Assembly: GCA_002403095.1 (NCBI GenBank)
Contig: DHHC01000021.1
Span: 1,732-65,731 of the forward strand
Direction of reading: 5' to 3'
DNA length: 64,000 nucleotides
DNA from: Leptolinea sp. UBA4782
Lineage (GTDB): Bacteria; Chloroflexota; Anaerolineae; Anaerolineales; Anaerolineaceae
A model generated the notes under the pieces. It did not search any database. It saw only the letters and a program-made list of their open reading frames with translations, and was not told the origin of the DNA. The first letter of the stretch is position 1; each line of letters opens with the position of its first letter. A program made the position numbers and the translations under genes. Below, one piece after another: positions 2,048 through 57,487 of this stretch.

Positions 2048-3310
2048 TCAGAATACCCCTTCCGGCTTTGGAATAGACAGGATGCGGCCCAGGTTGAGGA
2101 TGGTGAAATATTTGCGCAGGTATAAACCGTATTCCAGGGCTTCGTGCACATCGGTATCGGTCAGCCCAAGCTGGCTGGGATGGGTAGCACCGCCAACCTT
2201 CACCAGCAGGTCTTTGATCTCTGCTGAGGCCGGTACAGTGGCAGCAAATTGCTGGATCAGTTCCCAGCTGTCTCCAATCTTACGGCACATCCGGGCGAAT
2301 TGCTCCGGGGTTTGCTGGAGCGCTTTTTGCTGCACAGCCAGGATCAACTCAGCAGCGGGACCAAATACAGAACGGATACGGGCAACTTCATCCTCTGCAG
2401 ATGGCATACGGGCAGCCTGTAACCTCTCCAAAGCTTCTTCACGGCTGATCTGGCGCAACAATTCATAGTAGCGTGCAACCAGGATGGCTGCCAGCCCTAC
2501 TTTTGCGCCGTGGAACACGGGCGGCCGGTCTTCGCGCGCCAGCTTCATTTCCCAGTAATGCGAAATGACATGTTCAGCGCCTGAAGCCGGGCGTGAATTG
2601 CCCTGCAGGAGCATACAAATGCCTTCCTCGACCAGTCCTTCCATTAACTTATGCATGGCAGTTTCCCACTGGTCGTGCAGAACAGGTACCTGGTCCACAC
2701 AGGTTTGCAGCGCCCTGCGCGAGCGGTCAGCCAGCTCCTGGCTGAAGGCTTCCCCGGCGATGTGGTAGCTGATCGGCCAGTCTGCCAGGGCAGTGTACTT
2801 GCCGAACATGTCGCCGAAGCCCGAAGCGATCAGCGGGCGCGGGGCATGGGTCAGGGTGTCCAGGTCAGCAAAGATCCCTACCGGGGCGGCTGCCATGATG
2901 GTTTGCTTGTATTTCTGGATGGTCAGGGCGCAGCCGGTGGATGCGAAGCCGTCCACCGAAGCGGCAGTCGGCAGGGAAATAAAGGGCATGCCTGCCCGGT
3001 GGCTACAAAAACGCACGATATCGGTCAGGGTTCCTGAACCCACCCCAAGATAGACCCGCCGGCGCTCATCCGGCTCCAGCAGCACCTGGATGAGGTAGGT
3101 CTCATCCGGGGTCGCATTGCCCGGCAGCACAATGGTGCGCAGGCTGCGGTCAATTTTACGGATGGCTGTCTCAACCTCCCGTCCCAGGGCTTCGTATTCG
3201 TTTTCATCCGTCACCAGCGTGAATGCAGTGTATTGCTGCTTAGTAATGAATTTTTCGAGCTCGCTGACGGCGTTTTTGCCAATGTACACTTCGGGAAGCT
3301 TTACGGGCAT
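2048..3310 (-). CDS. AraM-type sn-glycerol-1-phosphate dehydrogenase (iron-containing ADH / dehydroquinate synthase-like superfamily)
   Basis: 420 aa. Blocks VGSGTLTDIVRF, PFISLPTAASVDGFAS, FADLD, GFGDMFGKYTALADWPIS and SRPASGAEHVISH match Bacillus subtilis AraM as I recall it. GGAGAT lies 5 nt before the ATG. Confidence 0.8.
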   Translation of the reverse strand: MPVKLPEVYIGKNAVSELEKFITKQQYTAFTLVTDENEYEALGREVETAIRKIDRSLRTIVLPGNATPDETYLIQVLLEPDERRRVYLGVGSGTLTDIVRFCSHRAGMPFISLPTAASVDGFASTGCALTIQKYKQTIMAAAPVGIFADLDTLTHAPRPLIASGFGDMFGKYTALADWPISYHIAGEAFSQELADRSRRALQTCVDQVPVLHDQWETAMHKLMEGLVEEGICMLLQGNSRPASGAEHVISHYWEMKLAREDRPPVFHGAKVGLAAILVARYYELLRQISREEALERLQAARMPSAEDEVARIRSVFGPAAELILAVQQKALQQTPEQFARMCRKIGDSWELIQQFAATVPASAEIKDLLVKVGGATHPSQLGLTDTDVHEALEYGLYLRKYFTILNLGRILSIPKPEGVF

Positions 3311-3378: not shown

Positions 3379-4056
3379 TCAGGCGCATTTCTTCAGCAGC
3401 CAATCCACCCAGTCTGCCAGACCCTCTTTGGTGTAGGAGGAGGTCTCGATCACAGGCAAGCCGGGGTGGATGCGGTGTGCCATTTCAATGCACAGGTCTT
3501 TGTCGAATTTCAGGTAAGGCAGCAGGTCAACTTTCGTCAGAACCATCACGGTGGCAAGGTGAAAAGCGAGCGGATACTTGATCGGTTTATCCTCGCCTTC
3601 GGTCACGCTCATCACCACCACTTTTTCCTGTTCGCCCAGGTCGTAGCCTGCCGGGCAAACCAGGTTGCCGACATTCTCAATGAACAGCAAGTCGATCTCG
3701 TCCAGCGGCAGCTGGGCCAGAGCCTTTTGCACCAGGGGCGCATCCAGGTGACAGTTGCCGATGGTATTGATCTGCACCACCGGGACACCGGTCTGGGCGA
3801 TGCGGTCGGCATCGTTGCTGGTTTGCTGGTCACCCTCGATGACGGCACAGCGCAGTTTTCCCCGCAGGGCTTTCAGTGTTTCCACCAGCAGGGTGGTCTT
3901 GCCAGAACCGGGCGAGCTGATCAGGTTGATGGTGTAAACACTTTTTTGGCGCAATAATTCCCTGTTTTCGGCAGCCACAACATCATTGGCTGCCAGGATC
4001 TCCTCTTCCAGCCTGACCACTTTCACTTCAGACGGGATAATTTTTTGCTCTGTCAT
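3379..4056 (-). CDS. hypB: Hydrogenase/urease nickel-incorporation GTPase HypB
   Basis: P-loop SPGSGKTTL, GNCHLDA and ENVGNLVCPA motifs. GAAGGAG RBS overlaps the end of hypA. Confidence 0.9.
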   Translation of the reverse strand: MTEQKIIPSEVKVVRLEEEILAANDVVAAENRELLRQKSVYTINLISSPGSGKTTLLVETLKALRGKLRCAVIEGDQQTSNDADRIAQTGVPVVQINTIGNCHLDAPLVQKALAQLPLDEIDLLFIENVGNLVCPAGYDLGEQEKVVVMSVTEGEDKPIKYPLAFHLATVMVLTKVDLLPYLKFDKDLCIEMAHRIHPGLPVIETSSYTKEGLADWVDWLLKKCA

Positions 4057-5553: not shown

Positions 5554-7398
5554 TCACTTCCGGGGAGACTTCTCTTGAGAAAAATACATCGATTGGATGA
5601 AGCTGTCGGTAAACCCTGGATAAATGGTCAACTCAATATAGTTGACCTCCCCTGCTAGCTGGCAGGCGGCTGCCCGGTTCTTCTTTGAGAGCAGCATCAT
5701 CTTGGCGCCGGCGCCGGCTGCATTGCCCACCTGGTGATACCGTTCCAGCGGCACATCCGGGAACATGCCGATGCGCACCGCGCTGGACAGGTCGAGGAAG
5801 GTTCCGAAAGCCCCGGCAATGATCCAGCGGTCAACTTCTTCCGCCCCGATTCCGGCGGTTTGCAGCAATACGTTGATACCGGTCCGGATGGCACTCTTCG
5901 CAAGCTGGATCTCGTGCACATCCTTGCGCGTGATCACAATGTCCCGGCCAACCCCTGAATCACCGGCTTCAACCAGCACAAACTCAGAATTGTTGTTTGC
6001 CAGGCGCACCCGTTCGTGTTCCCGGTCCATAGCCCCGCGCCGGTCAATAATATGCGCATCCAGCATTTCAGCGATGCCGCTCAAAATGCCCGTACCGCAG
6101 ATACCCACTGCTGGCACCCTGCCGATGGTGGTTACATGGACATTCCCATCCTCGATGCGTACTTTTTCAATGGCGCCGGCTGAAGCCCGCATACCATCCT
6201 TGATATGTGCCCCTTCGAAAGCCGGACCGGATGCGGTGGAACAGGAAAAGATCCGTCCGCGGTCAATCAGGCTGATCTCGGTATTGGTGCCGATATCCAC
6301 CAGCACCACCCGCTGGTCTTTTACTTCAGGATAAATACTTAGCAAGGCAGAAGTGTGGTCTCCGCCGATATACCCGGCGATGTTAGCCGGTGTGTGCAGG
6401 AGCGCTCCGTCCGCCAGTGCCAGCCCAACCTCACCCGCCAGGATATCAAGCGGCTCTGCCACTGCAGGTACATAAGGCGCGGCCCCCAGCTGCCTGACTG
6501 GCAGCCGGCAGAAGAAATGGTGCATGGCAGTGTTCCCCACCAGCACTGCATCCACCACCTGGCTGCGCGCAATCCCGGCTTCGGTACACATGCCTGTAAT
6601 GGCTTGGTTGAGGGTTTCTACCAGGCGGGTTTGCAGCAGCGTCTGGTTCTCAATCCCCTGGTTGGCAAAGGCAATCCGGCTGACAATGTCTTCACCGAAC
6701 GCGATCTGGGGGTTCATCACCCCGGTTTTGGCTGCGGTGATGCCGCTGGCAAGGTCAACCAGGTACAGGGCAAGTTTGGTCGAACCCATATCCACAGCCA
6801 GCCCGTACAGCGGTGTTCCGACAGGCAGCGTTGCCACCAGTATTGCCGCTTCATGGCCAGGTCTGACAGCCAAACGTACTTTCCAATCCTGTGCACGAAG
6901 CATCTCGCTCAGGCGGGTAATCCCTGCCAGGTCTGCCTGCAGCGGGGATAACCCCATTTTCTTCACTTCCTGGTCAACCCGGGTGAAATCTGAGCGCAGG
7001 TCGGTATTGGCAGGCAGCGGGATTTCCAGGTCAAGCGGCACTACCGCCGGATCCAGGTCGAAAAGCCTGTCCTGCCCGTCCACCTGCAGGCGCTGCATTG
7101 CCGGCATGGATTCGGGCGGTATTTCTATCCTGACATCCCCGGCAGGGTAAGCCTGGCAGGCAAGCCGGTAACCGGCATTCAGCTGATCTGCGGTTAATGT
7201 CTCTGTTTCAACCTCAGTAACCGCGGACAGCCTGCCCTTGATCAGCCTCACCTGGCAGGTTCCACAGATGCCTGCCCCGCCGCACACTGCAGCAAGGTCT
7301 GCACCTGCATGCTGTGCAGCTGCAAGCAGGCTGACATCCCCTGGTACTTCGAGGCGCCTGCCAATGGGGGTGAATTCGACCTTGTATTGTCCAATCAT
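5554..7398 (-). CDS. Reductive activase of corrinoid enzymes (RACo-type): N-terminal plant-type 2Fe-2S ferredoxin plus ASKHA ATPase domain
   Basis: Track ORF 5554..7455. Start set to MIGQYKVEF (ATG 7398), which forms an ATGA overlap with the upstream stop. CGGAGICGTCQV...ACQA is a Fer2 motif. DMGSTK and DIGTNTE are ASKHA phosphate motifs. Confidence 0.8.
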   Translation of the reverse strand: MIGQYKVEFTPIGRRLEVPGDVSLLAAAQHAGADLAAVCGGAGICGTCQVRLIKGRLSAVTEVETETLTADQLNAGYRLACQAYPAGDVRIEIPPESMPAMQRLQVDGQDRLFDLDPAVVPLDLEIPLPANTDLRSDFTRVDQEVKKMGLSPLQADLAGITRLSEMLRAQDWKVRLAVRPGHEAAILVATLPVGTPLYGLAVDMGSTKLALYLVDLASGITAAKTGVMNPQIAFGEDIVSRIAFANQGIENQTLLQTRLVETLNQAITGMCTEAGIARSQVVDAVLVGNTAMHHFFCRLPVRQLGAAPYVPAVAEPLDILAGEVGLALADGALLHTPANIAGYIGGDHTSALLSIYPEVKDQRVVLVDIGTNTEISLIDRGRIFSCSTASGPAFEGAHIKDGMRASAGAIEKVRIEDGNVHVTTIGRVPAVGICGTGILSGIAEMLDAHIIDRRGAMDREHERVRLANNNSEFVLVEAGDSGVGRDIVITRKDVHEIQLAKSAIRTGINVLLQTAGIGAEEVDRWIIAGAFGTFLDLSSAVRIGMFPDVPLERYHQVGNAAGAGAKMMLLSKKNRAAACQLAGEVNYIELTIYPGFTDSFIQSMYFSQEKSPRK

Positions 7399-8093
7399 GG
7401 CGTTTCCAGTGCCTGGTGATAGCTGCACATGCTGTTCATCGAGCAGAACTTGCATGGCTTGCCGCCCCTCTGGATTTGCCCACCCAGGCCGATGGCCATA
7501 GAGGCGGATTTACGCGGCAGCATCATGCCGCTAGGCAAGAGCCTGACCAGCTGCGGATCTGGCTGCAGGGCAGCAAACACCTGGGGCTGCCCCTGCTCAA
7601 CGCTCCACCCCAACATGCCGGGGCTGAAAGCAATAGTGGAAGATTGTCCTGCTGCCTCTGCCTGCTGCTCGATCTTCTGGCAATACCAGAAGGAAAGCAT
7701 ATCAACTGCCGCGTTCGCCAGGCCGTCCAGCGCCAGGCTTAGTGCCATATCGCCGTCATGCCCGGCCTGGTGAATTTTTTCCTCAAGCGCGGAACCAATC
7801 GTAACGATTGCCAGGGCTATCCTGTCTGCCCCGTCCAGCTGTTCGCTGATCAATTCCCCTGCCAGTGCGTATATTCCGTTCAGGAAGATACCCGTCTGTT
7901 TGTCCTTGCTGACCGAAAAAGTATCATGAATAACAGCAGGGCTTACCAGCCCTGCCCCAACATCGATCGCTTTTTCTGCCAGGTCCACCAGGACGGGACG
8001 GCGCACACGCACTACGGCCGGATCTGCCCCCTGACCCCGCAGGACCATATCTGCTGTGAAGTCCAGAGGAATATCTGTGTAGATTTGTGCCAA
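7395..8093 (-). CDS. Methionine synthase (MetH) activation-domain protein
   Basis: 232 aa. Overall resemblance to the stand-alone B12-dependent methionine synthase activation domain (SPG..GW, LP..MM.P..S blocks), with a C-terminal CxxC...C tail. TTG start with GAGG 7 nt upstream. Confidence 0.65.
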   Translation of the reverse strand: MAQIYTDIPLDFTADMVLRGQGADPAVVRVRRPVLVDLAEKAIDVGAGLVSPAVIHDTFSVSKDKQTGIFLNGIYALAGELISEQLDGADRIALAIVTIGSALEEKIHQAGHDGDMALSLALDGLANAAVDMLSFWYCQKIEQQAEAAGQSSTIAFSPGMLGWSVEQGQPQVFAALQPDPQLVRLLPSGMMLPRKSASMAIGLGGQIQRGGKPCKFCSMNSMCSYHQALETP

Positions 8094-8102
8094 ACTTAGC
8101 CT

Positions 8103-8999
8103 CTATGATGCAGCATCCAGCCGGGATACCGTGGCTGCAATGGCTGCCAGGTGTTCCGGGGATGTACCGCAGCACCCGCCTACCAGGCTGGCACCGGCTT
8201 CTACCCAGGCCGGGACATTATCGCCCATGTCTTGCGGGCTGACATCGTAAACGGTATTGCCGCTTTCGTCCACCCTCGGAAGGCCGGCATTGGGTTTAAA
8301 CCAGATCGGCAGGCTGGTAGCAGAACGCAGCTCTCTGAGCGCTTTCATGTTCTCATCCAGGCTGCGCCCGCAATTGATTCCGAGGATATCCACCTTGAAT
8401 TGCTGCAGCTCTGCAGCTGCCTGGGCGGGTTTTACCCCCATCATCGTGCGCCCGGCGCGCTCATAGCTGAAGGAGACCGCCAGAGGCAGGCTGGAGACTG
8501 AGCGCACCCCTTTCACCGCAGCCAAAGCCTCGCCGAGGTCGAACTGGGTCTCGATCACAAGCAGGTCCACCCCGGCTGCTGCCAGGCTGACAGCCTGGGC
8601 TGCGTAGGATGCTTCAGCGTCTGCCGGATCCAGGGTTCCCAACGGGGAAAGCATTTGCCCGGTTGGGCCAAGAGAACCAGCCACAAAGACATCCGTCCCT
8701 TCGGCCGCCTGCTTTGCCAGTGCAGCTGCCTTGCGGTTGATCTCATCGGCTTTATCCTGCAGGTTAGCATGCTGCAGCCGGTAGCGGTTGCCATTGAACG
8801 AACAGGTCAGGATGACATTCGCTCCCGCCTGGATGAAATCCTGGTGGAGCTGAAGGATCTTTTCCGGATGCTCGAGCATCCAGCTTTCACTTAACTGGCC
8901 GCTTTCCAGTCCGCGCGCTTGCAGGTTCGTGCCGGTCGCACCATCCAGCACGAGCACTTTGCCGGCTGCCAGTGTGGCTAAAATATCTTTTGGGGGCAT
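8103..8999 (-). CDS. Homocysteine S-methyltransferase-domain protein (MetH Hcy-module-like)
   Basis: 298 aa. LDGATGTNL N-terminus. Zn-ligand cysteines occur in GINCGRS and VGGCCGTSPEH. Confidence 0.85.
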   Translation of the reverse strand: MPPKDILATLAAGKVLVLDGATGTNLQARGLESGQLSESWMLEHPEKILQLHQDFIQAGANVILTCSFNGNRYRLQHANLQDKADEINRKAAALAKQAAEGTDVFVAGSLGPTGQMLSPLGTLDPADAEASYAAQAVSLAAAGVDLLVIETQFDLGEALAAVKGVRSVSSLPLAVSFSYERAGRTMMGVKPAQAAAELQQFKVDILGINCGRSLDENMKALRELRSATSLPIWFKPNAGLPRVDESGNTVYDVSPQDMGDNVPAWVEAGASLVGGCCGTSPEHLAAIAATVSRLDAAS

Positions 9000-9023: not shown

Positions 9024-9662
9024 TTACGATGCTGCCAGGCTCTTGGCCAGGGCAACTGCCCGGCTGGCATCCGGCGCAAACCCGTCAGCGCCGATTTCGT
9101 GGGCATACTGGCTGGTCACCGGCGCTCCACCGATCAGAACCTTCACTTTGCTGCGCAGCCCGGCTTCTTCCAGGGCTTCGATTGTAGTCTTCATGTTCGG
9201 CATGGTGGTGGTTAAAAGGGCAGACATAGCCACAAAATCAGCTTCATTCTCGCGCACGGCATCCACGAACTTTTGGGGAGGCACATCCGAGCCGAGGTCA
9301 ACAATCTCAAATGCGGCGCCTTCGAGCATCATGCTCACCAGGTTCTTACCAATATCATGCAGGTCGCCTTTTACCGTTCCTATAATGATCTTGCCGGCAG
9401 ATTTGTAGCTTTCCTTTACCAGGCGTGGCTTGAGGATGCTCAACCCGGCTTGCATTGCCTTGGCGGAGATCAGCATTTCGGGCACGAAATACTCGCCCTC
9501 TTCAAATAGCTTACCCACCTCGGTCATGGCAACAATCATACCTTCGTTCAGAATCAAAGCAGGATCCACACCTGCGTCCAGGGCTGTTTGCACTGCTGCA
9601 GCTGACTTATCGGCTGCCCCATCAATGATGGCGTTATAAATGGCTTTTAAGCTGTCTTCCAT
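9024..9662 (-). CDS. Cobalamin-binding corrinoid protein (MtmC/MtbC/MttC-like)
   Basis: 212 aa. B12-binding motifs GDLHDIGKN (DxHxxG), SALLTTT (SxL) and LIGGAP (GG). AAGGAG lies 8 nt before the ATG. Confidence 0.9.
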   Translation of the reverse strand: MEDSLKAIYNAIIDGAADKSAAAVQTALDAGVDPALILNEGMIVAMTEVGKLFEEGEYFVPEMLISAKAMQAGLSILKPRLVKESYKSAGKIIIGTVKGDLHDIGKNLVSMMLEGAAFEIVDLGSDVPPQKFVDAVRENEADFVAMSALLTTTMPNMKTTIEALEEAGLRSKVKVLIGGAPVTSQYAHEIGADGFAPDASRAVALAKSLAAS

Positions 9663-9801: not shown

Positions 9802-11175
9802 CTACACTTCCAGGCCCAGGCTGCGCACTTCCTGCTTGACTTCATCGTACATGCGCTGCCACCCAGCAACCGGTTCAAGCGTTTCCAGGTTGTATGCCTG
9901 GTCAAAGCGCACACCCGGGTTGCCTTCCGGCAGGGAGAAAATGGGCTCATAGCGCTGCAGGAGCCGTGAAACCAGCTCGTTCACCTGGGCAGCATTCAAA
10001 CCCTGGCGGGTGACTGCATGCCCCACCTCGCCCATCCAGCGCACTTCCAGTCCGGTACCGTTGGGCAGGGCGCCGTCCGCCGCACCAACCCCTTCCAGGT
10101 GGGCGCCACTGTAAGAGATCACGGCGGCATTGGCTGCCACTTCATATAACAGCTCGCAGGTCAGTGCGCCCGATTTGGGGAAGATGTCTGCCACGATGAT
10201 GGCAGGCGAATTACGCGCAAAAGCCCGTGCCACCACGCCTTCAACCCACATCACCCCCCGGGTGGATGTGGCTACATGCCGGATGTGGATGGGATGCAGC
10301 AGGTGATAGTCTGCCTGGCATACCAGGTTTGCCAGCATGAAAGAAGCCGCCTGTACCACCGCTGCCCCAGGTGCATTCCCGGCCAGTCCGCCGACCATCA
10401 CGCATGCCAGCGAGGCGTTGCGCGCCCCGTAGGTCTTGCCGTTGGCAGCCCGCACCAGGCTGCCGCGGTCGATCATCAATTCGTTCAGCATCGGAACCAG
10501 GTGCGCATCCGTTGGGCGCAGGAAAGCCGGGTTCATCACGCACAGGTCGCCCAGCTCTGAGACACTGCTCTGGGCGGCCAGCAATCCCATGCCCGAGCGC
10601 CCTAGCTTGCGCAGCCCATCACGCAGCAGCGTCAGCTCGTTGCGAGTGGCATACACTTCTTCCGGCTCGCCGGAAACCACGGGATGACCCTTGTAAGTAA
10701 CCAGCGAACCGCAGGTTGCCAGGTCTACAATGGGTTCTTTCATCCAGCTCATCACCATCGGCTGGAAGATTTCTTCAGGCGTCGGGACTCCCGGGTTGCC
10801 AGCCCACACAGCGGGAGGGTTGGTATCCCTTTCTTTTCTCGCACGCAGCACCCGTGCATCACTGCCTTCGCCGAAAACCAGTTCACGCGGGGCGTTCTGC
10901 AAGCCTTCCTCGATCTCAGCACGGCTGAAGCGGATCACCTTACTGGTGGAAACATTATAAACACCCAGCGTTTCTGCCAGTTCAAGCGCCGCCTGAAATA
11001 CCCGGTCTACCAGGGCATCATCCAGCGGGATAATCTCCTGCGAATCCCACTTGATGTCATATTTCGAAACCAGGCTGCGGGTGGTCATAACCACCCCTTC
11101 AAAATCCCAGTCTTCTTTCTTGACCGTTTTTCCCGTACGTGACATTTCAAGTATATCGAGGAACTCTGTGGTCAT
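9802..11175 (-). CDS. MtmB-family (monomethylamine methyltransferase-like) protein without pyrrolysine codon
   Basis: Uninterrupted 457 aa. Collinear similarity over the whole length to Methanosarcina MtmB as I recall it (DWD, FGEGSDA..R.RK, GRSGMG, PIHIRH..TSTRG, GLEVRWMGEVG, C-terminal LGLEV). AGGAG lies 8 nt before the ATG. Confidence 0.8.
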   Translation of the reverse strand: MTTEFLDILEMSRTGKTVKKEDWDFEGVVMTTRSLVSKYDIKWDSQEIIPLDDALVDRVFQAALELAETLGVYNVSTSKVIRFSRAEIEEGLQNAPRELVFGEGSDARVLRARKERDTNPPAVWAGNPGVPTPEEIFQPMVMSWMKEPIVDLATCGSLVTYKGHPVVSGEPEEVYATRNELTLLRDGLRKLGRSGMGLLAAQSSVSELGDLCVMNPAFLRPTDAHLVPMLNELMIDRGSLVRAANGKTYGARNASLACVMVGGLAGNAPGAAVVQAASFMLANLVCQADYHLLHPIHIRHVATSTRGVMWVEGVVARAFARNSPAIIVADIFPKSGALTCELLYEVAANAAVISYSGAHLEGVGAADGALPNGTGLEVRWMGEVGHAVTRQGLNAAQVNELVSRLLQRYEPIFSLPEGNPGVRFDQAYNLETLEPVAGWQRMYDEVKQEVRSLGLEV

Positions 11176-11352
11176 AGTATCTCCTGAAAGTAATGTGGAT
11201 TTAAGTTTACCCTAAACCGCGTAACAATTCTGATTGAAAGGAGTATTATATCTATACTTAATTAGTTTTCATGTATACTAACAATAAGCAGTACCTTACA
11301 GACCCGAAAAGATACTCTGTTCAGAAATTAAAACCCAAAGGAGGTGGTGAAA

Positions 11353-11427
11353 GTGGCTTTATACATTCTGGTGAACGTGGTTATCCTGGTAGTGCTGGGC
11401 CTGATCGCCCGTTTCTTCAGTAAATGA
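11353..11427 (+). CDS. Candidate 24-aa single-pass membrane peptide (M)ALYILVNVVILVVLGLIARFFSK
   Basis: Own reading, below the track cutoff. GTG start preceded by AAAGGAGGTGGTGA, a strong SD. A hydrophobic core is followed by a basic tail. It ends 48 nt before the ECF S-component gene. Confidence 0.35.
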   Translation: MALYILVNVVILVVLGLIARFFSK

Positions 11428-11475
11428 AACCTGTAATACTTTCGTATCAAATCAATCTAGAGGAGGAGTAATTCA

Positions 11476-12042
11476 ATGGAAAAACGTGGTGGTTGGGATT
11501 TTAAATATAAAACTCGCGATATTGTCATAATCGCGGTTATTGCAGCAATTGCAGGTGTGGTCAATACCGGTATTGGCAACCTGTGGTACCTGGCAAATAC
11601 ATCGCTTGGCCCAATGGGTGGTGCATTGCTGCAAGGCGCATTCATGTGGGCTTATGTCCTGGTCATGTGGCTGGTCCGCCGTCCCGGTGCTGCCATTTTA
11701 CTTGGCATTATTGAAACAACCGTAGAGGTTTTAATGGGCAATGCCTCTGGTATCGGCACCCTGGGTTGGGGCCTTTTCCAGGGCCTGGGCGTTGAGGTAA
11801 TTATGGCCATCAGCGGTTACAAAAAATTCGGCCTGCTGGCTGCCATGATGGCTGCTGCGGGCGCTTCACAATTCGGTACCGTCTGGACCGCCATTCTCTT
11901 CGGCTGGGATCCAGCTTACGCCAAAGATGTCTGGCTGGCAATCCCGATCAACTTGATCTCGGGTCTTGTGATTAGTGGTTTGCTGGGGTATTATTTAGCC
12001 AAGGCGCTGGCAAAAACAGGTTTGATCCGCTCGGCTCAATAA
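11476..12042 (+). CDS. ECF transporter substrate-capture (S) component, YkoE family
   Basis: 188 aa and polytopic. RRPGAAILLGIIETTVEVLMGNASG, FQGLGVEV and LISGLVISGLLGYYLAKALAKTGLI match B. subtilis YkoE blocks as I recall them. GGAGGAG RBS. Confidence 0.8.
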   Translation: MEKRGGWDFKYKTRDIVIIAVIAAIAGVVNTGIGNLWYLANTSLGPMGGALLQGAFMWAYVLVMWLVRRPGAAILLGIIETTVEVLMGNASGIGTLGWGLFQGLGVEVIMAISGYKKFGLLAAMMAAAGASQFGTVWTAILFGWDPAYAKDVWLAIPINLISGLVISGLLGYYLAKALAKTGLIRSAQ

Positions 12043-12118: not shown

Positions 12119-13876
12119 ATGACTGAAACCAATATTATCGCCGAACTACGCAACGTTTCTTACACTCACTGGAACCACCAGGAACCCACGTTAAAGAATG
12201 TTACATTGCAGCTGCAAAGGGGAACACTTTCGGTCCTGGTTGGACCGGGAGGCAGCGGCAAGTCAACCCTGTGCGACCTGTTAAATGGCCGCATTCCCAA
12301 GCTGTTGGGCGGCCAGTTGACCGGCGAGGTGATTATCGACGGGCTGGATACCGCAAAGGTGGAAGTGAAAGAGCTCACCAAGCGGGTGGGGTCGGTCTCG
12401 CAGGATCCCGAAACCATGTTTGCCACCCTGTACGTCGAAGATGAGATCGCCTTTGGACCGGAAAACCTGCTGGTAGATGCGGATGAAATTCGCCTTACTG
12501 TGGAAGAACTGCTGGATGTGACCCAACTGCGCCCCCAACGGCGCAACCTGGTATGGCACCTTTCCGGCGGTCAGGTGCAAAAGCTGGGGCTGGCTACCGC
12601 CCTGGCTATGAAACCCTCCCTCATCATCCTGGATGAGCCCACCGCCAACCTGGACCCCATCGCCACCCTCAGCGTGTATGATATGGTCCTTAAATTACGC
12701 GAACAGGGTATGACCATCCTGCTGGTCATTCGGGAACTGGATGAATTCCTATCCTGTGCTGACCAGGTGCTCCTTTTGCAGGAAGGAACCCTCCTCACCT
12801 CCGGAACACCCCAGGAGGTGCTCAAATCTCACGGGGAAGCTATGTTCACCTCCCTGGGGGTTTGGCTGCCGGAGACGACCGAGATCGGCCTGACCCTCCG
12901 GAACCGGCACAATATCCAGATGCGGGACATTCCTATCACTGTACCGGAGACCATTGCCTTGCTGCAGGACAATCACCTGCTGGATCAGCCCCTGGTGCTC
13001 CCCGTCCGGGAAGCACAGCCTGCCACAGTACAGCCGGAACTGCTGGTTGAAGCCAAAAACCTCAGCTTCCGCTATGCGGAAGGCACGCATGCCCTAAAAG
13101 ATGTTTCTTTCAACATCCATGCTGGCGAGTTGCTGGCAATCGTCGGGCGCAACGGGGCAGGCAAGAGCACCCTGGCCAAGCTGCTGGTTGGCCTGCTTAA
13201 ACCGCAAGCCGGCAGCCTGACCTTGTTTGACAAACCGGCGGCACAGTGGAAGGTGGAAGACCTTGCCAACCACATTGCCCTGGTCTTCCAGAATCCCGAG
13301 CACCAGTTCCTTACTGACAAAGTGTGGGACGAGATCGACTACAGCCTGCTGGCGCGCAACGTAACCGACCTGGAAGTGCGCAAAGAGACCATCCAGGAAT
13401 CGCTAACCCGCCTGGGACTGGAAGCTGTGGTGGATAAGCACCCGTTCTCCTTGAGCGCCGGAATGAAACGCCGCCTGGGCGTTGCCACCATGCTGGTTTG
13501 CCGCCCGCGCATCCTGCTGGTGGATGAACCCACTTATGGGCAGGATAAACAGATGACGCAAACCCTGATGCACTTCATGGAAGAGATCCGGGCAGAAGGG
13601 ATAGCTGTAGTGATGATCACCCATGACATGCGCCTGGTGCAGGAGTATGCCCAGCGCGTGATCGTAATGAGCGAAGGGCAATTGCTGTTCGACGGCCAGC
13701 CCCAAGGCCTGTTCAACCAGGATGAGATCCTGCAGGCAGCCAACCTGCGCAAGACAGTTCTGCATGACCTGGTGAGTGAACTGACCGCCCGGGGCGTGCT
13801 TATCAGCGGCGAGGTGCGCACCACTTCTGACCTGCTGACAGCGCTCACCACCCGCGAGGAGGTGCAGAATGGCTGA
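12119..13876 (+). CDS. Fused double ATPase of an ECF transporter (YkoD/EcfA-EcfA')
   Basis: 585 aa with two ABC cassettes: Walker A GPGGSGKST and GRNGAGKST, signatures LSGGQ and LSAGM, Walker B ILDEP and LLVDEP. Confidence 0.9.
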   Translation: MTETNIIAELRNVSYTHWNHQEPTLKNVTLQLQRGTLSVLVGPGGSGKSTLCDLLNGRIPKLLGGQLTGEVIIDGLDTAKVEVKELTKRVGSVSQDPETMFATLYVEDEIAFGPENLLVDADEIRLTVEELLDVTQLRPQRRNLVWHLSGGQVQKLGLATALAMKPSLIILDEPTANLDPIATLSVYDMVLKLREQGMTILLVIRELDEFLSCADQVLLLQEGTLLTSGTPQEVLKSHGEAMFTSLGVWLPETTEIGLTLRNRHNIQMRDIPITVPETIALLQDNHLLDQPLVLPVREAQPATVQPELLVEAKNLSFRYAEGTHALKDVSFNIHAGELLAIVGRNGAGKSTLAKLLVGLLKPQAGSLTLFDKPAAQWKVEDLANHIALVFQNPEHQFLTDKVWDEIDYSLLARNVTDLEVRKETIQESLTRLGLEAVVDKHPFSLSAGMKRRLGVATMLVCRPRILLVDEPTYGQDKQMTQTLMHFMEEIRAEGIAVVMITHDMRLVQEYAQRVIVMSEGQLLFDGQPQGLFNQDEILQAANLRKTVLHDLVSELTARGVLISGEVRTTSDLLTALTTREEVQNG

Positions 13877-15649: not shown

Positions 15650-16354
15650 ATGCAGCTTTATTTTGTACGGCACGGCCAATCAGAAAACAACCTGTTATGG
15701 GAAATACACGGGTATGAACTGGGACGCAGCGATGACCCGGATCTGACCGAACGCGGCCAATTACAGGCACAGGCAGTCGCTGGCCTGATTGCATCCGGTC
15801 ACCCGCAATATCCATGCCTGGGAAATCCAGGCGGATTCGGCATTACGCATGTGTACAGCAGCCTGATGGTGCGGGCTGCTGCCACCGGGCACGCCATCGC
15901 AGACCGTCTTGACCTGCCACTGACCGCCTGGCCAGAGGTGCATGAGACTGGCGGGATTTACCATGACATTGAAGACCAGCAGGTCGGGCAGCCCGGCAAA
16001 ACCCGCTCTTATTTACAGGAACGCTTCCCGCGATTGGTCTTGCCCAATTGGGTGGATGAAAACGGCTGGTGGAACCGCCCCTTCGAAGAGCGGCCGGAGC
16101 GCATCCTGCGCGCCAGGAAGGTTGTGGAACAGCTATACGAAAGACACGGGGGTACAGACGATAAAGTTGTGATGGTCAGCCATGGCGGTTTCTACAATTA
16201 CCTGCTGGCTGCTCTGATGGACCTGCCAGCCCGCAACCCGGTCTGGTACCTGCTGAACAACACAGCAATCAGCCGGATCGATTTCAACAGAGATGAGGTA
16301 CTGGTGGTTTACCAGAACCGCATCGACCACCTCGGACCGGATCTGCTAGAGTAA
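15650..16354 (+). CDS. Histidine phosphatase family protein (phosphoglycerate mutase-like)
   Basis: The YFVRHGQSENN catalytic RHG motif is at the N-terminus. GAGGGA RBS. Confidence 0.8.
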   Translation: MQLYFVRHGQSENNLLWEIHGYELGRSDDPDLTERGQLQAQAVAGLIASGHPQYPCLGNPGGFGITHVYSSLMVRAAATGHAIADRLDLPLTAWPEVHETGGIYHDIEDQQVGQPGKTRSYLQERFPRLVLPNWVDENGWWNRPFEERPERILRARKVVEQLYERHGGTDDKVVMVSHGGFYNYLLAALMDLPARNPVWYLLNNTAISRIDFNRDEVLVVYQNRIDHLGPDLLE

Positions 16355-20237: not shown

Positions 20238-21638
20238 CTAATTTACCGTTGGGCTGGGCGTTGGTGTATTTGTCGGTGTATCTGTCACTGTGGGTGTGGC
20301 AGTATCAGTTGGAGTAGGCGTTACAGTCGGGGTATCAGTAGCCGTACTGGTGGGTGTGACGGTTGGGGTGGGTGTGGCAGTGCTGGTGACAGTTGGTGTC
20401 CGGGTGGGAGGGATGTTATAGATCCTCGGCGCAAGCCATAACGCCTGGGCAGCGTTGGGGCTGCCGTTGTCCTTCACCGAAAGGATGAAACGGATGCTTT
20501 TTCCAACCAGCCCATCCAGGTTCACGGTAGCCTTATGGATGACTCCATCGCTGGTTTCCTTCCAGGTCCCCAGGTTGACCAGCGTGCCGTCATCTTTTTT
20601 ATAATCCAGCTTGTAGGTAATATTGCAGGCATTGAACCCGTAGGCACACCCGACCCAGGCGCTGAACATGTCACCCTTCTGTACCATGTACTTCGGGTAA
20701 ACAGCTTCCACAAAGCCCTGGTTTGGGTGCATCCACAAAGTACGTTCATCATCCACCCGGCCGCCTTCAAATTTGGGCGCCTTCAGCACAAGCCCCCAGG
20801 CATACTGGTAGCTGCTGTTTGCACAGGGCAGGGTCACCTTATCAACTCCCTCGCCGCTCTTCCAGGTTGCGGTGCACATTGAGGCAACAAAATCCAGGGG
20901 ATAAATAGCGGAGGGTACCGGGTCACTGGCTGGAGCATTTACCTTAATGGACGCCTTGAATGGATCTTTAGCGCCAGCGCCGGTGCCAAACATCTTCCCG
21001 CCGGCATTGCGCAGCATCCAATCACCGCTGAATGTACCCGGGCTGGCCGGAGCACGCAGGCTAATGGACAGGTCGATGCTCTGCCCCGGGGTAATGTTGG
21101 AGGTGAAGTTGTATACGCTCTGTCCCTCCATCCGGCTGCCGTTCACAAAGACCAGCGCGTACCCGGTTGTCCAGGTGCACGTTCCGGTGTTCTTTATGCG
21201 CCAACTCTTGGAGAAGAAATCACCCGGGAGAAATGTACTTCCATCCGGGATGGTGGTGCTGACCAGGGCAGCGCTGTCACAGGCGGTGCCTGAGGTTGGG
21301 GAGGCGGTTTTCCCGGGGGTTAAAGAACTGAATGGGGTTACGGATTTGAACGGGGTCAGGCTTGGGAATGGCGTCCGGGTGACCGCCTGGGTGCGCCCGG
21401 TTGTCGGGGTCATTGTCCCTATATTGATGCCTCCAGGTGTATCTGTTGCGATCAACCCCCAATCCGGGGTATTCTGCTGGCCTCCACCGGCATCACGGGT
21501 TAATTGTGCAGAAACCCCTTCGGCAACAGCAGTTTTCTCAGCTGAATCAACATCAACGGTCCCGGAAGGGAAAGCGCATCCTGATAGGAGAATGACCACA
21601 GCGATCCAGAGGATTGCCTGGTTGACTTTTTTAATCAT
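20238..21638 (-). CDS. Secreted lipoprotein with NBR1-like Ig domain, conserved C-terminal beta domain and Thr/Pro tail
   Basis: Track ORF to 21662 (GTG). The ATG at 21638 gives MIKKVNQAILWIAVVILLSGC (lipobox). The SKSWRIKNTGTCTW...FSGDWMLRN block is typical of the NBR1-type Ig-like domain. Paralogue of 21730..22875. Confidence 0.7.
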   Translation of the reverse strand: MIKKVNQAILWIAVVILLSGCAFPSGTVDVDSAEKTAVAEGVSAQLTRDAGGGQQNTPDWGLIATDTPGGINIGTMTPTTGRTQAVTRTPFPSLTPFKSVTPFSSLTPGKTASPTSGTACDSAALVSTTIPDGSTFLPGDFFSKSWRIKNTGTCTWTTGYALVFVNGSRMEGQSVYNFTSNITPGQSIDLSISLRAPASPGTFSGDWMLRNAGGKMFGTGAGAKDPFKASIKVNAPASDPVPSAIYPLDFVASMCTATWKSGEGVDKVTLPCANSSYQYAWGLVLKAPKFEGGRVDDERTLWMHPNQGFVEAVYPKYMVQKGDMFSAWVGCAYGFNACNITYKLDYKKDDGTLVNLGTWKETSDGVIHKATVNLDGLVGKSIRFILSVKDNGSPNAAQALWLAPRIYNIPPTRTPTVTSTATPTPTVTPTSTATDTPTVTPTPTDTATPTVTDTPTNTPTPSPTVN

Positions 21639-21729
21639 TTTGGTACCTGTTTTTCTTTCCACGCTATTATTGCGGTTAAGCGTTGATCTCCTTCATTTCG
21701 GTAGAGGTTGGTTTTTACGGCCCGAGGAT

Positions 21730-22875
21730 TCACCTATCGATAACAGGCGCTGTCCAGAACGCACGGTCGTCACTGGACGACCCGTTGTTTTGGACGGTGA
21801 AGATGAATTCCACCGATTTCCCGGCCAGGGATGAAAGGTCAATATCAATGTTGGTGTAGCTGCCATCAGACACTTCGCTCCAGCCGCCGAGCGCAGTAAC
21901 TGCGCCGCCGTCTGCAACATAAGCAAGCTGGAAGAGGACATTGCAGCTGGGGCTTTTATCCAGGCACCCGATCAGGGCTTTCAGCCGGTCACCGGACTGG
22001 ATGGAGATGGCAGGGAAGCGTCCGCTGATGTATCCGCCGCTCCCGTTGGATGGGATTGCCACAATGGTCGGCTCATCTTCCTGGTAACCGCCTTCCAGTT
22101 TGGGGGTTGTCTGCAGGGTAACTGAACCATTGGTAAAGTCATTCCCGCTGCCAGGGCACGGCAGTGCACCGGTTGAGCTGCTCCAGCGGGCGACACACAT
22201 ATTGTGGGCAAAGTCGAGTGGTTTAGCGGGGTCAAGGGTGGCCAGGGCAGTGACCTGGATTTTGACCCAAAAATAAGCCTTAGCAGATGAACCCAGGCCA
22301 AATGAGGTACCAGAAGCGTTTTTAAGCAGCCAGTTGGAGGTGTAGCTGCCGGTTGCACTTGGAGCGGTCATCCCTACAGAGACATCCACCGTTCCACCAG
22401 GGGCAACTGTGGTGTTGATCTTTACTGATGCGGGTGCGCCCATGGAGCTGCCCTCCACGAAGACGATAGTGTACTCCGGCGTCCAGGTGCAGGTGCCAAT
22501 GTTCTTCAAGCGCCAGGTTTTGGTGAATGCCTGCCCGGGCAGCAGCAGCGAGTCGTCCGGAATACTGACATCTTCCACCAGGCTGGCCCAGTCACAGGGA
22601 GTTGGTACAGGTGTGGAGGTTGCTGGCGTCATCTGCGGAGCAACGGTGTTTGTGGGTACAGCGGTTGCCTGCCCGGTGGGTAATCCCTGCCCGGGTTGGG
22701 CAGTAAGGGTGGCAACCATGGTTTCAAACGCCCCTTGCGTCTGGCGCACCTGGACTGTTTGGGCAACCGAGGTCTGTACCGAGTCAGAATTAACTGAGCC
22801 TGGTTTGGCGGGCATGTAGCAGGCTGAAAGTGCAAGCACGGTGATAAGCATAAACAGGGTAAATATCTTTTTCAT
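21730..22875 (-). CDS. Secreted lipoprotein with NBR1-like Ig domain (paralogue of 20238..21638)
   Basis: The ATG at 22875 gives MKKIFTLFMLITVLALSAC. TKTWRLKNIGTCTW...YTSNWLLKN. The C-terminal domain aligns with its neighbour. Confidence 0.7.
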   Translation of the reverse strand: MKKIFTLFMLITVLALSACYMPAKPGSVNSDSVQTSVAQTVQVRQTQGAFETMVATLTAQPGQGLPTGQATAVPTNTVAPQMTPATSTPVPTPCDWASLVEDVSIPDDSLLLPGQAFTKTWRLKNIGTCTWTPEYTIVFVEGSSMGAPASVKINTTVAPGGTVDVSVGMTAPSATGSYTSNWLLKNASGTSFGLGSSAKAYFWVKIQVTALATLDPAKPLDFAHNMCVARWSSSTGALPCPGSGNDFTNGSVTLQTTPKLEGGYQEDEPTIVAIPSNGSGGYISGRFPAISIQSGDRLKALIGCLDKSPSCNVLFQLAYVADGGAVTALGGWSEVSDGSYTNIDIDLSSLAGKSVEFIFTVQNNGSSSDDRAFWTAPVIDR

Positions 22876-22936
22876 GGTTTTCTCTCTACCCTCCTGACGA
22901 ACAAATCCTTCATTTTGTTCCATACATTTAAATAAT

Positions 22937-27933: not shown

Positions 27934-28005
27934 AGCGCTTTCTCCAATCTTAATCTGTTGTGTTAAAAGTGTCCTTTGCCAGGCCCCGGAGGGCAAACCT
28001 GCACC

Positions 28006-42343: not shown

Positions 42344-43033
42344 TTATTCGTCTAAACCGTGGAAATCTTCAGGAACCGGGCGGGCGGGAACCAGTTTGGC
42401 AGCCTCCCCGTGCAGGTGGTCTGCATTCGCCCAGTCCACCAGGCTGGCAAACAGCATACCGTCCACTGCTTCAGCTTCCATCGTGGTAATCGAACAGTTG
42501 TGGTTCTCTTCCCGCTTAAGCATATGTCCGCTTACGTTCTGGCAGATATCATTCAGGGTGAAGTTGAACATGCCGAAATGCCCCACCAGCGCCACCACAC
42601 TGTTGGTATGCCCGTGGATTACCTTTAGCAGCCCGGCGCGGGTACGCCCGAGCAGGCTGTGGTAATCATCACCACCGGGGAAGCGGGCATCCGGTTCGCC
42701 GTGCTGCCAGCGCTCGATAATGGCATCATGCGCCTGCCAGATCTCATATGTGGAGCGCACCTTTTCCATTTCGCCGACATCGATCTCAATCAATTCATCC
42801 AGCACGGTTGGCACCAGCCCGATGTACGTGCCGACGATTTCGGCTGTCTGCTTGGCCCGCTTCAGCGGGGAACAAAACAGCGCCTTAATTCCCCTTCCCG
42901 CCAGGGCTTCGCCTGTCTGCTGTGCCTGCAAAATTCCTTTTTCAGTCAGGGGGTAGTCAACCAGTTTGCTCGAAAGCTGCTTGATCAGGTTGGCATGGTT
43001 TTCTCCATGCCGGATGATGTAAATCGTATTCAT
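42344..43033 (-). CDS. Histidine phosphatase family protein
   Basis: MNTIYIIRHGENHAN (RHG motif). ATG 43033 lies behind AAAGGTG. Confidence 0.8.
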   Translation of the reverse strand: MNTIYIIRHGENHANLIKQLSSKLVDYPLTEKGILQAQQTGEALAGRGIKALFCSPLKRAKQTAEIVGTYIGLVPTVLDELIEIDVGEMEKVRSTYEIWQAHDAIIERWQHGEPDARFPGGDDYHSLLGRTRAGLLKVIHGHTNSVVALVGHFGMFNFTLNDICQNVSGHMLKREENHNCSITTMEAEAVDGMLFASLVDWANADHLHGEAAKLVPARPVPEDFHGLDE

Positions 43034-43109
43034 TATGCACACCTTTATATCAGCGCAGCCTGTTGCCCTGCGCTGTGGAAGTTCACTTTCACATTCGCAT
43101 GAAACGGGA

Positions 43110-51763: not shown

Positions 51764-51771
51764 CGATGGGT

Positions 51772-51844
51772 CGGGGTGTAGCGCAGTTGGTAGCGCACCG
51801 TGTTTGGGACGCGGGGGTCGGCGGTTCGAGTCCGCCCACCCCGA
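51772..51844 (+). tRNA. tRNA-Pro (anticodon UGG), CCA not encoded
   Basis: Hand-folded. Acceptor CGGGGTG/CACCCCG, D arm GCGC-AGTTGGTA-GCGC, anticodon arm CCGTG-TTTGGGA-CGCGG, variable loop GGGTC, T arm GGCGG-TTCGAGT-CCGCC, discriminator A. C1-G72, G37 and A73 fit bacterial tRNA-Pro. Confidence 0.9.
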
Positions 51845-51909
51845 CTGGACAGCCGCCGGATCATTTCCGGCGGTTTGGTATAACAGGGAATATAATTACC
51901 ATAACCATC

Positions 51910-57424: not shown

Positions 57425-57487
57425 GTTCACCTCGAAAAAAGCTGAGGTATTGTACCAGACTCAACAGGCAATACTAATAATCTGCAG

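Follow-up and report, generated by a model that had tools for sequence, protein, structure and literature searches.

The MtmB-like gene and its product

The stretch of DNA analysed here, referred to below as the window, covers 64 kb of contig DHHC01000021.1 from Leptolinea sp. UBA4782, and Pfam scans took in about 60 of its open reading frames (ORFs). On its minus strand lies a gene for a relative of MtmB, a methyltransferase family of methanogens whose known active site contains pyrrolysine (Pyl). An earlier note on this DNA, made from the letters alone, had described the gene as an uninterrupted MtmB-family ORF of 457 codons with a leucine codon at the Pyl site. We confirm that the gene encodes a full-length, Pyl-free relative of methanogen MtmB and that the observation is real. 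The other genes of its operon and a divergent energy-coupling factor (ECF) transporter, both absent from the earlier note, carry most of the functional information. The gene and the codon in question are:

9802..11175, minus strand: MtmB-family TIM-barrel protein, 457 aa, pyrrolysine-free, proposed substrate-specific methyltransferase (MT1); PF05369, 1L2Q, AlphaFold2 (AF2)/Foldseek
10579..10581, minus strand: CTG codon of Leu199, aligned with Pyl202 of Methanosarcina barkeri MtmB; alignment and minus-strand reading

The ORF consists of 457 codons and a stop codon, and neither the ORF listing nor our own translation contains an internal stop. The Pfam MtmB family (PF05369) matches residues 6-455 (E=2.1e-90, 304 bits against a 25-bit cutoff), and phmmer aligns the protein with the PDB chains 1L2Q and 1NTH of M. 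barkeri MtmB1 at E=1.6e-59. An AF2 model built from 30 clade members has a pLDDT of 91.6 and superimposes on 1NTH over its full length in Foldseek (TM-score 0.95, root-mean-square deviation 1.6 Å). The runner-up matches, MttB and MtgB, reach TM-scores of only about 0.5. The similarity is thus genuine in both sequence and fold, and in the alignment leucine fills the Pyl site. NCBIfam release 20 holds no family for the protein at E≤0.001. NCBI records label its homologues ‘monomethylamine:corrinoid methyltransferase’, a substrate that Pyl-free proteins very likely do not use.

An invariant leucine at the pyrrolysine site

Residues 193-205 of the ORF read RSGMGLLAAQSSV. At the site, the alignment to M. 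barkeri MtmB is free of gaps (query ‘grsgmglLaaqssvs’ vs. ‘grpgmgvXgpetsls’, where X is Pyl, residue 202 of the chain), and the position of an in-frame UAG is taken by the CTG codon of Leu199, as the earlier note had read it. The M. barkeri motif that the note had given, RPGMGV-Pyl-GPETSLS with Pyl at 202, is correct according to the 1L2Q/1NTH alignment. In the AF2 model, DSSP places Leu199 on a short barrel strand, and Pyl202 of MtmB has likewise been placed on a short barrel strand (PMC9842639).

In a first set of homologues, comprising 120 database clusters with 62-98% identity to the query, leucine occupies the Pyl column in all 120, within a conserved GRPGMG[ML]LA[AG]QSS motif. A scan of GTDB with one genome per species found a relative encoded in 176 species, and the best 80 of these 176 (at least 53% identity) were analysed as loci and orthologues. 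These best 80 come from Anaerolineae, Lachnospiraceae, Spirochaetes, Desulfobacterales, Planctomycetota and Acidimicrobiia, and their hosts include Leptolinea (93%), the cultured Pelolinea submarina, Robinsoniella peoriensis, Blautia and Brotonthovivens. Leucine is present at the site in every one of the 80, encoded by all six of its codons (CTG 45, TTG 13, TTA 9, CTC 9, CTT 3 and CTA 1). An invariant residue written in six codons indicates purifying selection on the amino acid and not a recent loss of UAG. CTG is moreover two substitutions away from TAG, and both a recent loss of Pyl and a pseudogene are thus ruled out.

The replacement of Pyl is accompanied by other changes. L226, L256 and D330 are invariant in the 80 orthologues and stand at the columns of M. 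barkeri E229, E259 and Q333, which are reported to contact Pyl (Hao et al. 2002/2004). N253, Y290, H294, H359, E361 and M381 are also invariant, and the query keeps the residues D223, E232, E377, R379 and E383 that are found throughout the superfamily. According to DSSP of the AF2 model, the clade-specific H294, D330, H359 and E361 (together with Y290 and N253) are located at, or close to, the ends of consecutive strands of the barrel. It is a speculation on our part that this set could give acid or metal catalysis replacing the Pyl adduct, like Zn in MtaB.

The earlier note found no pyl genes in the window, and we reach the same result: the Pfam scans of the 64 kb reveal no PylS-, PylB-, PylC- or PylD-type domain, and the sole tRNA in the window is a tRNA-Pro. 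TAG terminates 17 of the 56 long ORFs of the window. Given the sense codon at the site, Pyl decoding is irrelevant for this gene. The window also has no MtbA-type methylcorrinoid:coenzyme M (CoM) methyltransferase.

Relation to other pyrrolysine-free MtmB homologues

Pyl-free relatives of MtmB are known in large numbers, and the query is not the first instance of the phenomenon. A search of 1.84 billion representatives returned 855 MtmB-like clusters (at 50% identity) with E≤0.001. Of the top 150, almost every one is an uninterrupted protein of about 455-470 aa, and the Pyl column can be taken by almost any residue (L, V, I, G, F, S, T, N, C and others). The query is 27-29% identical to M. barkeri MtmB, compared with 40-42% for some non-Pyl representatives; the best full-length representative beyond the query's own clade is 42% identical to the query. 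A neighbour-joining (NJ) tree of 139 sequences places the query clade alongside a small number of sister clusters, with which it has in common leucine at the E229 and E259 columns, histidine at 294 and Asp/Asn at 330. The far end of the tree holds M. barkeri MtmB together with non-Pyl sequences that retain glutamate at the E259 column. The neighbourhood of P0186, which is among the non-Pyl representatives nearest M. barkeri MtmB, contains no corrinoid protein.

A non-Pyl MtmB homologue, MtqB of Methanococcoides methylutens Q3c, was recently characterized (PMC13044021, Front Microbiol, March 2026). Its rates of cob(I)alamin methylation are 37 nmol/min/mg for tetramethylammonium, 42 nmol/min/mg for choline and a weak 11 nmol/min/mg for monomethylamine; its clade branches near Pyl-MtmB, and its pocket has conserved Met, Cys and aromatic residues. 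The activity of MtqB means that non-Pyl MtmBs can be active methyltransferases with donors other than monomethylamine. It also renders outdated the view in the earlier note that no substrate had been assigned to a Pyl-free member of the family. In addition, a non-Pyl protein of the MtmB superfamily shows the strongest induction of any protein in dichloromethane-grown ‘Ca. Formimonas warabiya’ (PMC9768040). What is new in the present case is a Leu199 clade far from Pyl-MtmB that has its own invariant polar signature, a link to importers and purine-type neighbours, as well as an operon variant that resembles a split MetH.

The operon resembles a split methionine synthase

Downstream of the MtmB-like gene, five genes follow on the same strand, separated by spacers of 139, 24, 9, about 0 and 4 nt:

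9024..9662, minus strand: cognate corrinoid protein with a B12-binding_2 cap and a B12-binding Rossmann domain; PF02607, PF02310
8103..8999, minus strand: homocysteine S-methyltransferase-type module (BHMT/MetH homocysteine-domain-like), 298 aa, proposed second methyltransferase (MT2); PF02574, E=5e-74
7395..8093, minus strand: 232-aa relative of the MetH reactivation domain (Thermotoga maritima TM0269 type) with a C-terminal CxxCx5C motif; matches to 1J6R
5554..7455, minus strand: RACo/AcsV-type ATP-dependent reductive activase of corrinoid proteins with an N-terminal 2Fe-2S domain; PF00111, PF17650, PF17651, PF14574
4503..5549, minus strand: MtnA, S-methyl-5-thioribose-1-phosphate isomerase of methionine salvage; NF004326 at 457 bits and TIGR00512 at 426 bits, both above cutoff

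The corrinoid protein directly follows the MtmB-like gene, the arrangement of MtmB in the strict sense. It scores 215.1 bits against the NCBIfam model pyl_corrinoid (TIGR02370), just below the cutoff of 215.3 bits, and is also matched by the MtgC, MtbC and MtaC models, each below cutoff. The metH model matches its residues 9-209, which identifies it as a cobalamin-binding module. The homocysteine-binding module is represented by the 8103..8999 protein, which also matches PRK07534, PRK08645 and the N-terminal domain of metH, and whose GINCG and GGCCG motifs supply the Zn-binding Cys triad.

Reactivation is represented by two proteins, one TM0269-like and the other RACo/AcsV-like. On its own the 232-aa protein has no Pfam match and reaches 1J6R in phmmer at E=2.4e-4; a profile of its family matches 1J6R at E=1.8e-13, and 13 of the 33 family members match PF02965. 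Its single-sequence AF2 model, with a pLDDT of 38, is too low in confidence for use. The RACo-type protein matches NF040756 (E=4.5e-128) with an alignment that begins at residue 25, and its true start is probably Met20 at 7398, which abuts the upstream gene. In one Chloroflexota contig, homologues of the 232-aa protein adjoin MtnA-like, PfkB and S-adenosylhomocysteine hydrolase genes; in another contig, their neighbours are four MttB-family genes in tandem. One of these two contigs is L088. The family is annotated as hypothetical but seems to be an accessory used generally by corrinoid methyltransferase and methionine-cycle systems.

A pterin-binding module for methyl-tetrahydrofolate (methyl-THF) is missing: neither the operon nor the roughly 60 ORFs scanned in the window include a PF00809 or MeTr-type gene, and the MtmB-like gene takes its place in the operon. 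Judged by gene content, the operon looks like a split methionine synthase that has an MtmB-like donor module where the methyl-THF module would be. There is a precedent for such sharing in Ruegeria and Phaeobacter, where one corrinoid protein is shared by a non-Pyl amine demethylase and split MetH modules (PMC12478193). The order of homocysteine methyltransferase, 232-aa protein, RACo and MtnA is conserved only in the three nearest relatives (L001-L003).

The limits of the operon were drawn from gene spacing. A scan of promoters and terminators gave consensus matches no more frequent than expected from shuffled sequence, so the limits rest on that spacing. Beyond MtnA lie a CobW/HypB/UreG-type GTPase (3379-4056, minus strand) and an Fe-ADH_2 dehydrogenase (2048-3310, minus strand), in an order kept in L002 and L003. 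They might be a Zn/Co metal chaperone and a methionine-salvage reductase of the kind found in the dihydroxyacetone phosphate (DHAP) shunt.

A dedicated ECF transporter is linked to the MtmB-like gene

On the other side of the MtmB-like gene, a complete group I ECF set of the YkoEDC type, made up of an S component, a double ATPase and a T component, lies in one locus and is transcribed divergently from the operon:

11176..11475, no strand assigned: intergenic region between the MtmB-like operon and the divergent ECF genes; sigma-70-like hexamers on both strands
11476..12042, plus strand: ECF S component of the YkoE (hydroxymethylpyrimidine (HMP)/thiamine) family, proposed methyl-donor importer; PF09819 E=5e-27, PDB 5EDL (YkoE) E=7e-17
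12119..13876, plus strand: fused double ECF ATPase, YkoD-like; two ABC_tran domains, TIGR04520/TIGR04521
13869..14654, plus strand: ECF T component, CbiQ family; PF02361 E=1.5e-34, TIGR02454 at 88.2 bits, below its 111.8-bit cutoff

The marks of thiamine or HMP specificity are absent, as the module has neither a thiamine pyrophosphate (TPP) riboswitch nor thiamine biosynthesis or salvage genes beside it. Apart from the tRNA, Rfam gives no match at the gathering threshold over the window, and none at E≤1 over 11100..11560, for a riboswitch or other RNA leader.

The S component adjoins the MtmB-like gene in 25 of the 80 loci, usually in the order MtmB-like, S component, ATPase, T component on one strand. 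Its homologues there are 62-97% identical and thus more conserved than the enzyme. We also looked up the association from the opposite direction, using four S-component homologues (71-79% identity) picked solely for their long contigs. In all four, an MtmB-family gene lies directly upstream of the S component, while the outer flanks are unrelated (phasin/MntP; SIS/BtpA; RACo and corrinoid protein; trehalase). This four-gene module of MtmB-like gene and ECF transporter is the tightest association found, and such tight linkage implies that the transporter brings in the substrate of the enzyme.

Neighbouring genes across the clade and its sister clades

In order to survey the neighbours of the MtmB-like gene, ORFs within 7 kb of it were clustered without bias in the 80 loci and scanned for known families. 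In about 25 loci the MtmB-like gene directly adjoins a corrinoid protein gene, in many cases with no more than 0-4 nt of gap or overlap; RACo is adjacent in 8-9 loci, and GntR/UTRA regulators occur in 11. MeTr-type MT2 genes are found at L034 and L040 and URO-D-type genes in sister clades. Since acceptor modules differ in this way between lineages, the acceptor is lineage-specific.

Three unrelated types of transporter adjoin the gene in different lineages: the YkoE-like ECF transporter, a Bmp/PnrA nucleoside-type ATP-binding cassette (ABC) system with binding protein, two permeases and ATPase (about 12 loci), and a permease with 12 transmembrane segments (12-TM). One of the three is present in about 45 of the 80 loci. 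A purine- or nucleoside-type neighbour is present in 24 of the 80. These include adenine deaminase in 8 loci from at least three phyla (Anaerolineales, Desulfobacterales-type and Lachnospiraceae/Bacillota; TIGR01178 at 594 bits against a 472-bit cutoff), the molybdenum and FAD subunits of xanthine dehydrogenase in 4, 5′-deoxyadenosine-deaminase-like amidohydrolases in 3 (L017, L023 and L060), and RihA-like nucleoside hydrolases and PNP_UDP_1 phosphorylases in 2 loci each.

The 12-TM permease is about 520 aa long and occurs in 8 loci, e.g. L061:11412-12965 (plus strand) and L083:2494-4083 (plus strand). It has no match in Pfam or NCBIfam. It adjoins the MtmB-like gene and adenine deaminase both in the query clade and in the closest sister clade, in versions that are 53% identical, and is a candidate for a nucleobase transporter family.

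That closest sister clade (P0123; 42% identity, Ile at the site) has the order permease, adenine deaminase, corrinoid protein, URO-D, MtmB-like gene. A second, P0285, with 40% identity and Tyr at the site, is frequent in gut Clostridia and has the order NCS1 cytosine/purine permease, corrinoid protein, MtmB-like gene, DUF1638, with RACo and URO-D nearby. In a third (P0300, loci L086 and L087; 37% identical), the MtmB-like gene and its own corrinoid protein lie beside CdhC/CdhD-type carbon monoxide dehydrogenase/acetyl-CoA synthase and aldehyde:ferredoxin oxidoreductase genes, which suggests that methyl groups from another donor feed into the Wood-Ljungdahl pathway.

Some loci are islands with further MtmB-like paralogues. 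The purine islands L017, L023 and L060 hold one or two extra copies, 31-36% identical, with M or T at the Pyl column (for example L023:7558-8958 and L023:17960-19363, both minus strand). Purine-catabolic islands of this kind are also present at L030, L037 and L047, and across all islands the Pyl column of the paralogues carries M, T, N, G or F. These islands contain xanthine dehydrogenase subunits, deoxyadenosine-deaminase-like amidohydrolases, the Bmp ABC system and GntR, and the paralogues in the purine islands suggest a set of position- or base-specific enzymes.

Proposed function

With Leu199 at the position of Pyl202, the enzyme would not activate monomethylamine through a Pyl imine adduct and would act on another donor. 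The earlier note had supposed as much, and reasonably so in light of the invariant leucine, the missing acidic residues of the Pyl surroundings, the MtqB precedent, and neighbouring transporters and enzymes that would be senseless for methylamine. We tentatively favour, at somewhat below even confidence, a methylated adenine-type base or nucleoside as the donor, with the MtmB-like protein acting as MT1 of a corrinoid-dependent methyl transfer. This reading is drawn from gene neighbourhoods: importers of the nucleobase or nucleoside type are co-inherited with the gene, and enzymes that process adenine adjoin it in several phyla.

Candidate donors are N6-methyladenine or N6-methyladenosine, which would be the most abundant, and 1-methyladenine, which as a cation would be the nearest chemical analogue of the quaternary amines taken by other non-Pyl enzymes. 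The compound would be imported by the adjacent YkoE-like ECF transporter. The MT1, which we infer to be catalytically competent, would then methylate Co(I) of the 9024..9662 corrinoid protein, and the Zn-type 8103..8999 methyltransferase would move the methyl group to homocysteine, its inferred acceptor, to yield methionine. The RACo activase and the protein resembling the MetH activation domain would restore Co(I) after oxidation. Where adenine deaminase and xanthine dehydrogenase genes are present, their products would process the released adenine. For the operon in the window, methionine is most plausibly the methyl sink, because the homocysteine methyltransferase with its Cys triad, the TM0269-like protein and MtnA belong to one co-directional cluster with gaps of 4-24 nt.

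Several points weigh against this proposal. No purine-catabolic gene lies beside the operon in the window, and the purine link is therefore transferred from orthologues. About 34 of the 80 loci have none of the transporter or purine neighbours, and in many (ECF-only modules, Lachnospiraceae) a corrinoid protein or MT2 is missing beside the gene. As the arrangement of acceptor genes is confined to L001-L003, methionine synthesis would be a lineage-specific use and not a property of the clade. ECF importers are usually carriers of trace vitamins, which suits a scarce modified base and equally suits HMP-like pyrimidines or other heterocycles. A neutral N6-methylamino group is also a poorer methyl donor than the quaternary amines of the characterized non-Pyl enzymes. 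A literature search found no work tying MtmB homologues to purines, adenine or methyladenine.

Other donors were weighed against the same loci. A quaternary amine or small onium compound as for MtqB (tetramethylammonium, choline, a related quaternary amine or a sulfonium) would agree with the substrates of MtqB, the sole characterized non-Pyl MtmB homologue (PMC13044021), and of the characterized non-Pyl MttB members, all of which act on quaternary amines; moreover, L199, L226 and L256 could line a cation-pi or hydrophobic pocket. Such a donor is nevertheless improbable, given that the query clade is remote from the Pyl-MtmB side of the family where MtqB is placed (PMC13044021), sharing about 29% identity with M. 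barkeri MtmB and standing across the NJ tree from it, that betaine/choline transporters of the BCCT or OpuA type are absent from all 80 loci, and that the linked transporters are of nucleobase, nucleoside or aminopyrimidine type and the linked enzymes of purine type. The YkoE homology of the S component (5EDL, E=7e-17) could instead point to a non-purine heterocycle imported as a trace compound through the ECF system, namely an N- or O-methylated aminopyrimidine of the HMP, thiamine or bacimethrin type, or a methylated cytosine. YkoE serves as an S component for HMP/thiamine, no other association is as strong or as reciprocal as the ECF link, and one sister clade has an NCS1 permease of the cytosine/purine/thiamine type. 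The missing thiamine genes and TPP riboswitch tell against such a heterocycle, as do the adenine deaminase and xanthine dehydrogenase genes beside orthologues with the same invariant signature, and we hold it to be unlikely.

Nor do the methionine-related genes of the window make a strong candidate of an S-methyl donor from methionine salvage (5′-methylthioadenosine (MTA), methylthioribose or 2-methylthioethanol) whose methyl group would pass to homocysteine and be recycled into methionine. MtnA is the last gene of the operon, followed by the CobW-like and Fe-ADH genes, an arrangement kept in L001-L003; an IF-2B-family gene and PNP_UDP_1 phosphorylases lie beside orthologues in L056 and L027, and amidohydrolases resembling 5′-deoxyadenosine/MTA deaminases in L017, L023 and L060. 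MTA, being an adenine nucleoside, would suit the Bmp/PnrA importers and adenine deaminase, and the invariant His/His/Glu/Asp set could bind a metal that stabilizes a thiolate leaving group. The MtnA link, however, is limited to a few loci, and adenine as the immediate product explains the adjacent adenine deaminase more simply. Known corrinoid-dependent thioether demethylases are of the MtaA/URO-D family and not of the MtmB family, and 5′-thioadenosine has no known fate; this donor is likewise unlikely.

Free monomethylamine, used without Pyl, is less probable still. A YerA-type deaminase would release methylamine and hypoxanthine from N6-methyladenine, and the MtmB-like enzyme would harvest the methyl group. 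B. subtilis YerA/Bsu06560, annotated as adenine deaminase, is reported to deaminate N6-methyladenine and N6-methyladenosine (PMC8643624, PMC12133300), MtqB has a low activity of 11 nmol/min/mg with monomethylamine (PMC13044021), and adenine deaminase genes are adjacent in 8 loci and one sister clade. Against this, 72 of the 80 loci, the window included, have no adenine deaminase gene nearby, and the commonest unit joins the MtmB-like gene to a dedicated importer of an organic solute, which free methylamine would not need. Leucine also stands in place of the acidic residues near Pyl. The adjacent deaminase scores as an adenine deaminase at equivalog level, by a model that may not separate the two activities; of the two enzymes, the PDB contains only the adenine deaminase Atu4426 and a C-terminal fragment of YerA. 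Finally, many loci are without an adjacent corrinoid protein and NCBIfam has no model for the family, as might be expected of an inactive relic that decayed after losing Pyl, or of a protein with a role apart from corrinoids. We consider this very improbable: the protein is full-length and under strong purifying selection (mean column identity of 72%, numerous invariant residues, synonymous variation at Leu199), its AF2 model is confident, D223, E232, E377, R379 and E383 are retained, the clade is present in 176 species genomes, and the gene is coupled to corrinoid proteins at 0-4 nt in many loci.

A methylated adenine-type donor thus remains our preferred reading for the gene in the window. 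A broader proposal, that the Leu199 clade, the Ile and Tyr sister clades and the purine-island paralogues together form a family of cobalamin-dependent nucleobase N-demethylases, is more doubtful, and we put it forward as a rather unlikely extension. Such a family would carry out anoxic demethylation of bases from epigenetic and RNA modification (N6-methyladenine, 1-methyladenine and their nucleosides), regenerating adenine for salvage or catabolism and passing the methyl group to methionine or methyl-THF. If this were true, it would constitute a new recycling route for modified nucleic-acid bases in gut Lachnospiraceae and in Anaerolineae of sediments and digesters, and a second, chemically distinct solution inside the MtmB scaffold, based on acid or metal catalysis and not on pyrrolysine.

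Hundreds of Pyl-free MtmB clusters exist and only one member has a known substrate. The Leu199 clade is widespread, being found in 176 GTDB species that include human-gut Lachnospiraceae, and a concrete hypothesis on its substrate can be drawn from the conserved neighbours. Were the donor a methylated purine, there would be an anaerobic, B12-dependent fate for bases of the N6-methyladenine type that ties nucleic-acid turnover to one-carbon and methionine metabolism, and the clade would reveal the way in which the MtmB scaffold functions in the absence of Pyl. The operon in the window also extends the recently recognized notion that donors other than methyl-THF can supply split methionine synthases with methyl groups.

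Other features of the window

Two deoxynucleoside kinase genes (59741-60403 and 62327-62968) point to active nucleoside salvage in the host, and a tungsten-type aldehyde:ferredoxin oxidoreductase (AFOR_N and AFOR_C; 26026-27996, minus strand) is consistent with a strictly anaerobic one. The window also contains three separate histidine-phosphatase (His_Phos_1) genes (15650-16354, 42344-43042 and 56849-57430), tandem paralogous ORFs of 474 and 397 aa (20238-22923, minus strand), each with an ‘N_BRCA1_IG’ Ig-like domain (PF16158) that is unusual in bacteria, and a 225-aa ankyrin-repeat protein (43110-43787, minus strand) beside a class I S-adenosylmethionine (SAM) methyltransferase. The family-2 glycosyltransferase ORF at 51766-52632 (plus strand) overlaps the tRNA-Pro (51772-51845, plus strand) at its 5′ end. 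Because of this overlap and a Pfam domain that begins at residue 55, the real start of the glycosyltransferase lies downstream of the tRNA.

Comparison with known systems

The closest structural relative is M. barkeri MtmB (1NTH/1L2Q), which shares with the query the Pfam family, the TIM-barrel over its full length (TM-score 0.95), the GRxGMG motif before the Pyl position, the conserved D223, H225, N231/E232, E377, R379 and E383, and an MtmC-like corrinoid partner. It differs in that the query is 27-29% identical to it, has a sense leucine codon for UAG/Pyl, leucines at the E229 and E259 columns and aspartate at that of Q333. The query is also bacterial (Anaerolineae), with a homocysteine methyltransferase as the acceptor module and dedicated importers, and with no MtbA-type CoM methylase in the window. 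MtqB resembles the query as a Pyl-free MtmB-family MT1 with a separate corrinoid protein, whereas it is archaeal, feeds CoM and methanogenesis via MtbA, and has Pyl-operon neighbours where the query clade has ECF and purine genes. MtqB branches near the Pyl-MtmBs (PMC13044021) and the query clade lies on the far side of the NJ tree, which bounds the relation between the two only indirectly.

The non-Pyl members of the MttB superfamily (MtgB, MtcB, MtpB and MtyB) present a parallel case, in which a family of Pyl enzymes includes Pyl-free members that demethylate other N-methyl compounds onto a corrinoid protein, with reactivation of the RamA/RACo type. Unlike the query, they belong to PF06253, show a TM-score of about 0.5 to the model, use quaternary-amine donors and have a pterin-binding MT2. 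The MtgBCDE/split MetH system of Phaeobacter inhibens and Ruegeria pomeroyi (PMC12478193) likewise has separate homocysteine-binding (BHMT-like), cobalamin-binding and reactivation (RamA-type) proteins, and its single corrinoid protein serves both an amine-demethylating MT1 and methionine synthesis. Its MT1, however, is the MttB-family MtgB and its pterin-binding MtgD is essential, whereas the query MT1 is of the MtmB family, and the operon and window have no pterin-binding module and do have a protein like the TM0269 activation domain.

T. maritima MetH (TM0268) and TM0269 (1J6R) are comparable in that the 232-aa family matches 1J6R and is encoded beside homocysteine- and B12-binding modules; in contrast to TM0269, the 232-aa family has the extra CxxCx5C motif, its partner modules are separate polypeptides, and RACo is present as well. 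Finally, YkoEDC of B. subtilis (HMP/thiamine) and the ECF transporter of the window each form one dedicated module with a PF09819 S component, a fused double ATPase and a CbiQ-type T component. The transporter of the window is set apart by a remote YkoE match, a gene context free of TPP riboswitch and thiamine genes, and its tight co-inheritance with the MtmB-like gene.

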